Shown here: in pieces, positions 2,558-4,330 of the stretch
How the letters are laid out: each line of letters begins with the position of its first letter
How positions within the stretch are numbered: position 1 is the stretch's first letter
IMG/VR virus record: IMGVR_UViG_2663763282_000003
Location: 1 to 4,330 of that record
Source of the DNA: a virus
Lineage: Duplodnaviria; Heunggongvirae; Uroviricota; Caudoviricetes
Length of the DNA stretch: 4,330 bases
Strand: one strand, 5' to 3'
Position numbers and translations under genes: made by a program
The notes under the pieces: generated by a model
The model's database searches: none
Told to the model about the DNA's origin: nothing
What the model saw: the letters and a program-made list of their open reading frames with translations, nothing else

Positions 2558-2598
2558 CTGAACTCGCTACGGAGGGTTTTGTTTTATGGAGATGATAA

Positions 2599-2766
2599 AT
2601 GCACTTCCGAGTTACAGGTGAATGGAATGGAGAACCATTCAACAGAGTTATCGAAGCCGAGAACATCAGCGACTGCTATGACCACTGGATGCTGTGGGCG
2701 CAGATAGCACATGCAGACGTAACCAATATTCGAATTGAAGAACTGAAAGAACACCAAGCCGCCTGA
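2599..2766 (+). CDS. small hypothetical protein (55 aa)
   Basis: ATG at 2599 with GGAG at 2588-2591 (7-nt spacer); open frame MHFRVTGEWNGEPFNRVIEAENISDCYDHWMLWAQIAHADVTNIRIEELKEHQAA to TGA 2764-2766. Below the length cutoff of the supplied ORF track. Stop codon lies in the loop of the next terminator hairpin. Confidence 0.4.
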   Translation: MHFRVTGEWNGEPFNRVIEAENISDCYDHWMLWAQIAHADVTNIRIEELKEHQAA

Positions 2767-2780
2767 TGGCGGTTTTTTAT
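2756..2780 (+). terminator. intrinsic terminator-like hairpin
   Basis: Stem CCGCC (2759-2763) / GGCGG (2768-2772), loop TGAT (2764-2767), extendable by flanking A-U and G-U pairs, followed by six T (2773-2778). Confidence 0.6.
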
Positions 2781-2792
2781 TGGAGACAAGAA

Positions 2793-3137
2793 ATGTCAGA
2801 TTTGGCTATGAAGGTTTTGAAATGGCAATCGACTGGCGATGTCGGCATCAGTAGCGCAACTCTTGCCTCAATCGCATGTGGACTGAAAAAGAATATCTAT
2901 GGTCATCACTTCGGCGCTCCACATGACGCAGCCGATTTCAGACGATGCGTTGCACTTGTTGAGCAGATCCCAGAAATCAGAGATTCATTCGACAAGGTTG
3001 CAAAGCGCGTTCCGGCATTCAAAGGCATCCTCAACGAATGGGATTCCCTCGTTGATCTGTTGAAGTCTGAAATGAAGATACACGGAAACAAAGCACCAGA
3101 GACTTACAGAAGAATTAGCGAGTTACGCAAGGACTAA
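2793..3137 (+). CDS. hypothetical protein (114 aa), function unknown, immediately upstream of xis
   Basis: ATG at 2793 with GGAGA at 2782-2786 (7-nt spacer). The in-frame ATG at 2766 used by the ORF track lies inside the upstream terminator hairpin and has no Shine-Dalgarno. Stop TAA 3135-3137. No family recognised. Confidence 0.6.
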   Translation: MSDLAMKVLKWQSTGDVGISSATLASIACGLKKNIYGHHFGAPHDAADFRRCVALVEQIPEIRDSFDKVAKRVPAFKGILNEWDSLVDLLKSEMKIHGNKAPETYRRISELRKD

Positions 3138-3142
3138 CCACA

Positions 3143-3161
3143 GCCTCATACTCGATGAGGC
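3143..3161 (+). terminator. possible weak terminator or RNA hairpin
   Basis: 7-bp stem GCCTCAT (3143-3149) / ATGAGGC (3155-3161), loop ACTCG; the downstream T-tract is poor (CTGTTCATT), so termination efficiency is doubtful. Confidence 0.3.
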
Positions 3162-3227: not shown

Positions 3228-3575
3228 GTGGAAGAAGAAATCTTCACTCGTGAAGAGGCAGCGTCGTATCTGAAGGTAGACAAAGGCACTATCACGCAGT
3301 GGATACGAAGTGGACGACTTCAGGCCGCAAAGATAAATCCAGATAAACCTAAAAGCCCATATCGCATTTGCAAGTCAGACTGCATTGCGGCGCTTAAGTC
3401 TGTGAGACACAATAGCGCGGTGAATGCGGTTGATGTGCAGGAGGTTAAAGCATGTCAATCAAACTACGCGGTGGCACGTGGCACTGCGATTTCGTCGCGC
3501 CAGATGGATCAAGAGTTAGACGCTCTCTTGAAACATCGGACAAAAGGCAAGCGCAAGAACTTCACGATCGTCTGA
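3228..3575 (+). CDS. xis: excisionase (Xis; P22-type excisionase/DNA-binding protein), 115 aa
   Basis: GTG at 3228 with GGAG at 3217-3220 (7-nt spacer). Small basic protein with an N-terminal HTH-like segment (FTREEAASYLKVDKGTITQWIRSGRLQAA). Sits directly upstream of and overlapping the integrase gene, as in P22-type int-xis modules. Confidence 0.75.
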   Translation: MEEEIFTREEAASYLKVDKGTITQWIRSGRLQAAKINPDKPKSPYRICKSDCIAALKSVRHNSAVNAVDVQEVKACQSNYAVARGTAISSRQMDQELDALLKHRTKGKRKNFTIV

Positions 3576-4330
3576 AAGCAGAAGCGTGGAGAGTAAAAAA
3601 TCTCGGGGAATCACCGAAAAAGCTATTCAAGGAAGCCTGCATACGGTGGCTGCGTGAGAAATCGGATAAGAAGTCCATTGATGATGACAAGAGCATTATA
3701 TCGTTCTGGATGTTGCACTTCAGAGAAGCCATTCTCTCTGACATAACAACAGAAAAAATAATGGAGGCGGTAGACGGGATGGAAAACCGCCGCCATCGCC
3801 TGAACTGGGAGATGAGCCGGGACAGGTGTTTGCGACTTGGCAATCCGGTGCCGGAGTATAAACCAAAGCTTGCAAGCAAAGGAACGAAGACGAGGCATCT
3901 GGCAATACTTCGCGCCATTCTCAATATGGCTGTTGAATGGGGATGGCTTGACAGGGCACCCAAAATATCAACACCACGCGTTAAGAATGGACGCATCAGA
4001 TGGCTTACAGAGGAGGAATCGAAGCGCCTGTTTGCAGAAATTGCTCCTCACTTCTTCCCTGTGGTCATGTTTGCAATCACGACAGGCCTTCGCCGTTCCA
4101 ACGTTACAGACCTTGAGTGGTCACAGGTCGATCTGGATAAGAAAATGGCATGGATGCACCCTGATGAAACAAAAGCTGGCAATGCGATCGGAGTTCCTCT
4201 TAACGAAACCGCATGCCAGATATTAAGAAAACAGCAGGGGCTCCATAAGAGATGGGTATTTGTCCACACCAAACCTGCCTACCGAAGCGACGGAACAAAA
4301 ACAGCAGCGGTAAGGAAGATGAGAACCGAC
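3452..4330 (+). CDS. int: phage tyrosine integrase (site-specific recombinase, P22-type), 3'-partial: N-terminal 293 codons in window
   Basis: ATG at 3452 preceded by AGGAGG at 3439-3444 (7-nt spacer). Frame stays open to the last base of the window (879 nt, no stop). Translation MSIKLRGGTWHCDFVAPDGSRVRRSLETSDKRQAQELHDRLKAEAWRV... has an arm-binding-type N-terminus and the box I motif region TTGLRRSN containing the first catalytic Arg. Downstream catalytic residues would lie beyond the window. Confidence 0.9.
   Translation, partial: MSIKLRGGTWHCDFVAPDGSRVRRSLETSDKRQAQELHDRLKAEAWRVKNLGESPKKLFKEACIRWLREKSDKKSIDDDKSIISFWMLHFREAILSDITTEKIMEAVDGMENRRHRLNWEMSRDRCLRLGNPVPEYKPKLASKGTKTRHLAILRAILNMAVEWGWLDRAPKISTPRVKNGRIRWLTEEESKRLFAEIAPHFFPVVMFAITTGLRRSNVTDLEWSQVDLDKKMAWMHPDETKAGNAIGVPLNETACQILRKQQGLHKRWVFVHTKPAYRSDGTKTAAVRKMRTD

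Follow-up and report, generated by a model that had tools for sequence, protein, structure and literature searches.

The window, the whole 4,330-nt stretch of DNA that was analysed, is a segment of a mosaic lambdoid prophage; its + strand follows the leftward early (pL) operon, of which the region forms the distal end. The gene order is abc2, a 160-aa ORF, an Ead/Ea22-like gene, ea8.5, ORF55, ORF114, an xis-like gene, and an integrase gene. At most about 68% of the window was covered in one place by any phage or complete E. coli record, a value typical of lambdoid mosaics. The features were as follows.

186-479: abc2, anti-RecBCD
Between abc2 and the Ead/Ea22-like gene: 160-aa ORF
1130-2026: Ead/Ea22-like gene
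2229-2510, + strand: ea8.5 homolog, upstream of the ORF55 cassette (Pfam PF20735 Lambda_ea8_5, E 1.1e-48; phrog_6325)
2528-2557, + strand: predicted intrinsic terminator tL4, hairpin 2528-2549 (nine pairs, loop of 4) with the T-rich tail TCTTTTAT (consensus scan)
2560-2587, + strand: t4-equivalent, terminator-like leader hairpin (AACTCGC-TACG-G[C>A]GGGTT) plus TTTTGTTTT, weakened in the window
2586-2621, + strand: 11-codon mini-ORF, not conserved (ATG 2586, TGA 2619-2621), with its ATG overlapping the Shine-Dalgarno sequence of ORF55
2588-2591, + strand: Shine-Dalgarno sequence GGAG of ORF55, 7 nt before the ATG (GGAGATG in 200 of 213 loci)
2599-2766, + strand: ORF55, 55 aa, lambda orf55/lambdap35 family (phrog_676, M60848, NC_001416)
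2756-2781, + strand: predicted intrinsic terminator t5 overlapping the end of ORF55 (stem AAGCCGCC 2756-2763, loop TGAT 2764-2767, stem GGCGGTTT 2768-2775)
2793-3137, + strand: ORF114 (phrog_1229, E 1.7e-51; ORF114 in M60848), Shine-Dalgarno sequence GGAG at 2782-2785
3143-3161, + strand: hairpin after ORF114 with no T-run (GCCTCAT-ACTCG-ATGAGGC), 6 nt after the ORF114 stop, conserved in 434/HK022
3228-3575, + strand: excisionase-like gene, HTH_17, 115 aa (phrog_2907 excisionase, E 4e-31; Pfam HTH_17)
3452-4330, + strand: integrase gene (Pfam Phage_integrase)

The 115-aa excisionase-like ORF overlaps the start of the integrase gene by 124 nt, and lambda, 434, and HK022 have the 72-aa lambda Xis behind ORF55. 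A search of the whole window against Rfam (E <= 1) gave no match, and therefore no known riboswitch, attenuator, or sRNA family is present there. At the other end of the window, positions 35-70 (within an ORF at 35-175, MITDVWKYRGKS...) recur fused inside ORF55 of other prophages (proteins P0046 and P0049; MTGVWKYRGKS...EPFNRVIEAE...), and this looks like a recurrent recombination junction that makes chimeric ORF55 N-termini.

ORF55 as a conserved protein gene

ORF55 starts with the ATG at 2599 and comprises 55 codons (168 nt), ending with the TGA at 2764-2766. Its initiation, judged good in an earlier note on this DNA, was borne out by the GGAG at 2588-2591, which was present in 200 of 213 related loci with the same leader. 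The whole protein matched phrog_676 (E 5.5e-40), its residues 1-55 aligning with positions 1-55 of the 55 in the profile. The same ORF is named ORF55 in M60848, the 1990 record of phage 434, and lambdap35 in the lambda genome (NC_001416), where it lies directly upstream of xis, at 29118-29285; the protein of the window is about 96% identical to that of lambda orf55. ORF55, tL4, the leader hairpin, and the stop-codon hairpin have thus all been annotated or predicted already in lambda, 434, or HK022, and no part of the arrangement is new, a named status that the earlier note had missed.

A homolog set of 243 loci was collected, and it contained 118 distinct coding sequences. All 118 were exactly 55 codons long, with neither a frameshift nor an internal stop, and one had a non-ATG first codon. 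Loci that keep the hairpins and have a broken ORF, which the earlier note had proposed as evidence against its reading, did not occur among these alleles; the ORF and the hairpin were both conserved. Comparison with a clade of 73-75% identity (Klebsiella and relatives) gave a dN/dS of 0.07-0.13 with synonymous sites near saturation, and the variable alignment columns at codon positions 1, 2, and 3 numbered 30, 13, and 50, respectively. The AlphaFold model had a pLDDT of 90.4 and a beta-beta-alpha-beta fold (strands 2-9 and 12-19, helix 23-37, strand 41-49), with the last six residues at low confidence; the C-terminal tail therefore seems free to encode the 5' arm of the stem that overlaps it. 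The results indicate purifying selection on ORF55 and mark it as a genuine, conserved protein gene. The suggestion that the product may be a real small protein is thereby strongly supported, by the length fixed in 118 alleles, the dN/dS of about 0.1, and the confident fold.

The orf55 family is a small one, with 54 representative clusters in a set of 1.84 billion proteins, and no family for ORF55 was found in Pfam. Chimeric and truncated versions are present in databases. In one metagenome contig (L027, 2501-2668), ORF55 carries two compensating frameshifts (MHFGVTGEMEWRTIQQSYRTENISDC...), which may be an assembly or sequencing error and not a real variant. Matches in Shewanella, Pseudomonas, Bradyrhizobium, Kitasatospora, Paenibacillus, and other assemblies (L005-L025) were phage lambda itself on short or low-coverage contigs, and its presence in these public assemblies looks like DNA contamination or spike-in. 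The search of assembled-genome contigs returned almost only this contaminating lambda and added no diversity. An antisense ORF of 57 aa (2584-2757, minus strand) was rejected as a candidate gene, being broken in 33 of 123 variants. A CRISPRi essentiality screen of lambda did not have lambdap35 among the genes tested, PMC5737525 contained no per-gene mention, and no experiment on the t5 hairpin or ORF55 was found in the literature searched.

Hairpins flanking ORF55

The consensus terminator scan found 10 sites in the window on both strands, compared with 3.8 +/- 2.0 in shuffled sequences. The two strongest + strand sites, 2528-2549 and 2756-2775, bracket ORF55 as had been described from first inspection, and both hairpins formed when 2510-2800 was folded, a check that the earlier note had recommended.

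The upstream hairpin, with a folding energy of -13.1 kcal/mol, begins 18 nt after the ea8.5 stop. It is annotated as 't-L4' in 434 (M60848) and as 'tL4 terminator' in HK022 (X51962), and it corresponds to the predicted terminator t3 of lambda (PMC4195576 Table 4). A literature search for 'tL4' gave nothing informative; tL3 appears in PMC2532685 solely as a cloning-vector part. Sequence identity among relatives begins just upstream of tL4, marking a mosaic breakpoint. In L071, L118, L091, and L175, the site of tL4, some 50-75 nt upstream of the ORF55 start, has either no hairpin or an unrelated one of comparable strength, such as AACCCGC-CGAG-TGCGGGTT and GCCGC-TTAA-TGCGG, with the leader downstream unchanged.

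A third, conserved hairpin, which the earlier note had overlooked, lies in the leader at 2560-2579 and is followed by TTTTGTTTT directly before the Shine-Dalgarno sequence of ORF55. Its lambda equivalent, t4, was predicted by ARNold as TTTTATCTGAACTCGC-TACG-GCGGGTTTTGTTTTATG (Bloch et al. 2014, PMC4195576 Table 4). Among the 213 loci with this leader, 205 read GGCGG or GGCGA in the 3' arm, giving an 8-bp stem with a UACG loop and -11.0 to -11.9 kcal/mol. A2573 of the window is a rare C->A change in this arm that opens the stem, leaving -5.3 kcal/mol. The GGAGG at 2571-2575, formerly taken as the Shine-Dalgarno sequence of the 11-codon mini-ORF, arises from this point mutation and occurs in 3 of the 213 loci, namely the window and two others. 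The mini-ORF itself is present in the window as described; across relatives it has 11, 28, 31, or 50 codons or lacks its ATG, so that it is not a conserved feature, and its candidacy as a leader peptide was rejected on the variable length or absent ATG and the rarity of GGAGG.

The hairpin at the end of ORF55 has 8 pairs, including 5 G-C pairs, a loop of 4, and about -13 kcal/mol in the scan and the fold. The TGA, which the earlier note had described as most of the loop, supplies three of the four bases of TGAT, and a run of six T at 2773-2778 followed by ATT completes the structure, the run being 5-8 T long in nearly all relatives. The hairpin was kept in 237 of about 243 loci, and nearly all of 50 distinct 3' ends retained it together with the T-run and a TGA in the loop. 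Changes in the stem included one double compensatory replacement of G-C by U-A (GCCTCC...GGAGG) and wobble switches from G.U to A-U (29 loci), from G.U to G-C, and from G-C to G.U, with the four innermost pairs nearly invariant. The minimum-energy and centroid folds of 2510-2800 formed the terminator hairpin and contained no competing helix using its arms. ARNold predicted the hairpin as terminator t5 in the lambda interval from exo to xis (AAGAACACCAAGCCGCCTGATGGCGGTTTTTTCTTGCGTG; Bloch et al. 2014, PMC4195576 Table 4), and this prediction was all that was found for lambda, no Term-seq or reporter data for the hairpin coming to light. With its G+C-rich stem, T-run, and evolutionarily maintained pairing, the stop-codon hairpin has the sequence features of an intrinsic terminator and is predicted to act as one.

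About 21 loci carry a weakening C->A change in this stem, and phage 434 has a real mismatch there. An explanation of the odd 434 hairpin as a sequencing error of 1990 was rejected, as the modern 434 genome is identical at the site. These weakened loci and 434 suggest that strong termination is not always required. Weak stem variants were seen in none of the loci with the lambda xis/pI context and in few of those with other contexts, in numbers that are small and heavily redundant.

Downstream of the T-run, the 114-aa gene starts at 2793, in agreement with the earlier note. The in-frame ATG at 2766 overlaps the ORF55 stop (TGATG) and would give a 123-aa form of ORF114. Coupling through TGATG was considered and rejected; this ATG was out of frame in 16 of 42 loci with the ORF114 context, and in lambda it opens a 7-codon ORF only. 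Its frame is not conserved, since phages differ in the length of the T-run (6, 7, or 8). Phages of the 434/HK022 type carry ORF114 as an inserted cassette between ORF55 and xis; lambda lacks it. The hairpin at 3143-3161 that follows ORF114 is not a canonical terminator.

Identity among relatives ends right after the T-run. At least six different modules were found beyond it: the lambda xis leader, ORF114, AlpA-like genes of 66 aa and 63 aa, a 71-aa membrane ORF, and others; the excisionases among them are of several unrelated types. The order in the 434 record (M60848) is t-L4, ORF55, ORF114, t'-I, xis, and int. In lambda, the ORF55 hairpin stands immediately before TTGCGTGTAATTGC, ahead of xis; this sequence agrees with the consensus given for the cII site of pI in the 434 annotation. 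Phage 434 has a related hairpin, with a terminator annotation, that abuts its cII site TTGCGTGTAATTGC after the inserted ORF114. Related hairpins occur twice in this phage, after ORF55 and before xis, bracketing ORF114. Since the lambda ORF55 hairpin and 434 t'-I both directly precede the cII-site sequence, the alignment leads us to infer that they are positional counterparts.

Stop codons in terminator loops in the orf55 family and other genes

In the clade of 73-75% identity, the protein ends with ...EAAH* and the hairpin, GCCGCC-CACTGA-GGCGG-T5/6, again has the stop in its loop; the stem is degraded in one sublineage. Two lineages with 47-52% identity to the window protein lie elsewhere in the genome, one right after the N gene and the other near the repressor, and both have a TAA stop in the loop of a GC-hairpin followed by a T-run (GCCGC-CTAACAA-GCGGC-T6 and CTGCC-TAACT-GGCGG...T5). 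Four deep lineages kept the design; their stops are TGA or TAA, their loops measure 4-7 nt, and the register of the stem is shifted among them. The other five of the family's nine deep lineages lacked a terminator at the stop; there the following gene abuts or overlaps. A weak tree did not place the hairpin-bearing lineages in one clade.

Homologs with 33-53% identity were found in other genomic contexts. Remote homologs L251-L253 (1501-1662), L247 (1501-1668), and L250 (1501-1671) were located after the N antiterminator gene, near a cI-like repressor, and after replication genes. These different genome positions indicate that the orf55 protein is not tied to the xis/int neighbourhood.

As a base rate, 112 distinct ORF-terminator pairs of other genes in the same loci were examined, and the stop lay in the loop in 3 (about 3%) and in the 5' arm in 2. 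All three stop-in-loop cases end with Ala-Ala or Val-Ala encoded by the GC-rich 5' arm; they are unrelated lambdoid genes (L259 1466-1482, L253 1437-1457, and L048 1176-1197). A stop codon in the terminator loop is therefore an uncommon but recurring compact gene-end design in these phages. Its persistence in the orf55 family is notable, though confounded by shared ancestry. Simple compaction would predict less than this combination of retention at 47-53% identity and a base rate of about 3%, and selection for translation sensitivity may have contributed. What is modestly new here is this retention, at about 50% identity, of a stop in a terminator loop with the C-terminal Ala-Ala encoded by the stem arm, and its recurrence at a few other lambdoid genes.

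Interpretation and comparison with known systems

In the lambda pL operon, intrinsic terminators are overridden by N-modified polymerase. The explanation that we favour, with moderate confidence, is that ORF55 is a real gene flanked by ordinary, antitermination-overridden terminators at module boundaries that insulate xis/int, and that the stop codon in the loop is more a by-product than a switch. ORF55 travels as a compact cassette of one or more terminators, a Shine-Dalgarno sequence, the ORF, and a terminator in which the last codons form the 5' arm and the stop lies in the loop. tL4, t4, and t5 would be ordinary Rho-independent terminators, of which tL4 and t4, in the untranslated leader, would stop unmodified polymerase, with the stop-codon hairpin as a further barrier before ORF114, xis, and int. 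Polymerase modified by phage antitermination (N, gene 24, or put type) would pass all three. Expression of ORF55, ORF114, xis, and int would thus come to depend on antitermination, and xis/int would be shielded from unmodified polymerase; the recombination breakpoints of the mosaic fall at the same hairpins. Neither an N gene nor a nut site occurs in the window, and antitermination in this phage is therefore assumed from synteny.

Given a stop codon in the loop, the 5' arm (2756-2763) would be covered by a ribosome that is completing ORF55 or that closely follows the polymerase, and termination at the last hairpin should consequently fall on unmodified, actively translated transcripts. Moving a stop codon to 5 bp from a terminator lowered its efficiency from about 90% to less than 10%, and efficiency was restored without translation (Li et al. 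2016, NAR, PMC4824070). Terminators early in the coding region were not repressed, coupling not yet being established there (Li et al., PMC4824070), and earlier work on ribosome repression of stop-proximal terminators is that of Wright and Hayward and of Roland et al., as cited in PMC4824070. ORF55 is just 168 nt long, so that the ribosome effect could be partial. We consider that the stop in the loop probably makes t5 sensitive to translation. No evidence of a dedicated switch was seen here: antitermination is already provided in the operon itself, many members of the family lack the design, and homologs far from xis keep it. This translation sensitivity is regarded less as a dedicated regulatory switch than as something that follows physically from an inherited, compact arrangement.

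In the pyrBI attenuator, a ribosome close behind the polymerase blocks the terminator hairpin. A similar arrangement at ORF55, in which the stop in the loop is selected and translation of ORF55 decides whether polymerase enters ORF114, xis, and int, is unlikely, although several observations speak for it. The geometry is exactly as required, the Shine-Dalgarno sequence is strong and conserved, the stop stands in the loop in four deep lineages against the base rate given above, the cassette usually lies directly before excisionase genes of several unrelated types, and ribosomes repress stop-proximal terminators in experiments (PMC4824070). However, the polymerase reading the operon would be antitermination-modified and should be indifferent to the hairpin, and unmodified polymerase would already have been removed by two terminators in the leader, which is not translated. 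Moreover, a terminator at the stop is lacking in five of nine deep lineages, homologs after N or near the repressor keep the design though far from xis, and the same design, also with C-terminal Ala-Ala, is found at unrelated genes. The lineages also share ancestry, so that retention is not independent evidence, and terminators early in coding regions escape repression (Li et al., PMC4824070), ORF55 being short. Distinctly improbable is an extended form, in which transcription would halt ahead of the excision and integration genes unless ORF55 is being translated just behind the polymerase or the polymerase is antitermination-modified, so that excisionase expression would follow the translational state of the cell; most speculatively, a Gp2-like Orf55 would act on RNA polymerase and so feed back. 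If translation sensitivity is real, it would add a layer of control before xis/int in lambda, among the best-studied genetic switches, and would explain why the cassette is often found directly before unrelated excisionase types.

A main role of the hairpin outside termination, either as a 3'-end stabiliser or processing site of the ORF55 mRNA or as a 'linker' for homologous recombination between modules, is very unlikely. The mosaic breakpoints exactly at the T-run and just before tL4, and the related hairpins bracketing the ORF114 cassette in 434, would fit such a role. On the other hand, the hairpin shows all the sequence hallmarks of intrinsic terminators, among them a run of 5-8 T in nearly all variants; the compensatory changes preserve RNA pairing and not DNA sequence; the diverged lineages keep the structure with different sequence, which is no help to homologous recombination; and Rfam gave no match to a known processing element. 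The third alternative, that ORF55 is not a protein gene but a leader or regulatory ORF or a chance ORF over conserved RNA elements, might draw on its small size, missing Pfam family, putative function, and chimeric or truncated database versions, and is effectively refuted already by the fixed length and the dN/dS, with the confident predicted fold and the homologs of 33-53% identity in other contexts pointing the same way.

With ordinary module-boundary terminators as the favoured explanation, the value of the analysis is mainly clarification: ORF55 is a real, conserved protein gene of the lambda family, its hairpins are known or predicted terminators located at mosaic boundaries, and the mini-ORF with its Shine-Dalgarno sequence reflects a rare point mutation.

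The closest known systems are lambda orf55 (lambdap35, NP_597778) and 434 ORF55 (AAA67903), flanked by tL4, lambda t4 and t5, and 434 t'-I. Compared with these, the protein of the window is about 96% identical, the leader and the order ea8.5-ORF55-(ORF114)-xis-int are the same, and two hairpins are near-identical, the one in the leader being weakened by a rare change. The window differs in this rare C->A in the t4 stem, in having ORF114 of the 434/HK022 type, and in having a P22-like, not lambda-like, xis/int module.

The pyrBI leader ORF likewise runs through its attenuator. At ORF55, the terminator is reached by a translating ribosome and the stop codon lies in the loop, as in an attenuator. 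Unlike attenuators, ORF55 encodes a conserved folded protein and not a leader peptide, and the operon has its own processive antitermination; a leader-peptide attenuator has a non-functional leader ORF, and ORF55 does not qualify because it is conserved and confidently folded. No alternative antiterminator structure was seen in the folds of 2510-2800. Similar to the stop-proximal terminators repressed by ribosomes (PMC4824070), t5 has the stop codon at or inside the hairpin, and a close ribosome would prevent its folding.

T7 Gp2, an inhibitor of host RNA polymerase (PDB 4LK0, 4LLG, 2LMC), was the top Foldseek match of the ORF55 model (prob 0.99, TM 0.59-0.62, 23% identity). Lambda Orf55 was previously modelled as a small alpha/beta protein resembling T7 Gp2, a likeness called speculative (Donaldson 2021, PMC8614690), and a speculative model of its docking to RNAP was published (PMC8614690). 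A function of Orf55 as a Gp2-like inhibitor binding the RNAP beta' jaw is accordingly putative and speculative. A profile search of ORF55 against PDB sequences gave hits at chance level alone.

The moron of lambdoid phages, described by Juhala, Hendrix, and colleagues, is an autonomous gene cassette with its own promoter and terminator. ORF55 differs in having no sigma-70-like promoter between tL4 and its start (none in 2511-2598); the sole + strand promoter-like hit, at 2427-2456, lies inside ea8.5, upstream of tL4. Expression of ORF55 appears to depend on operon transcription. Like a moron, ORF55 is a small accessory gene with its own terminator downstream, varied genome positions, and breakpoints at the edges of the cassette.
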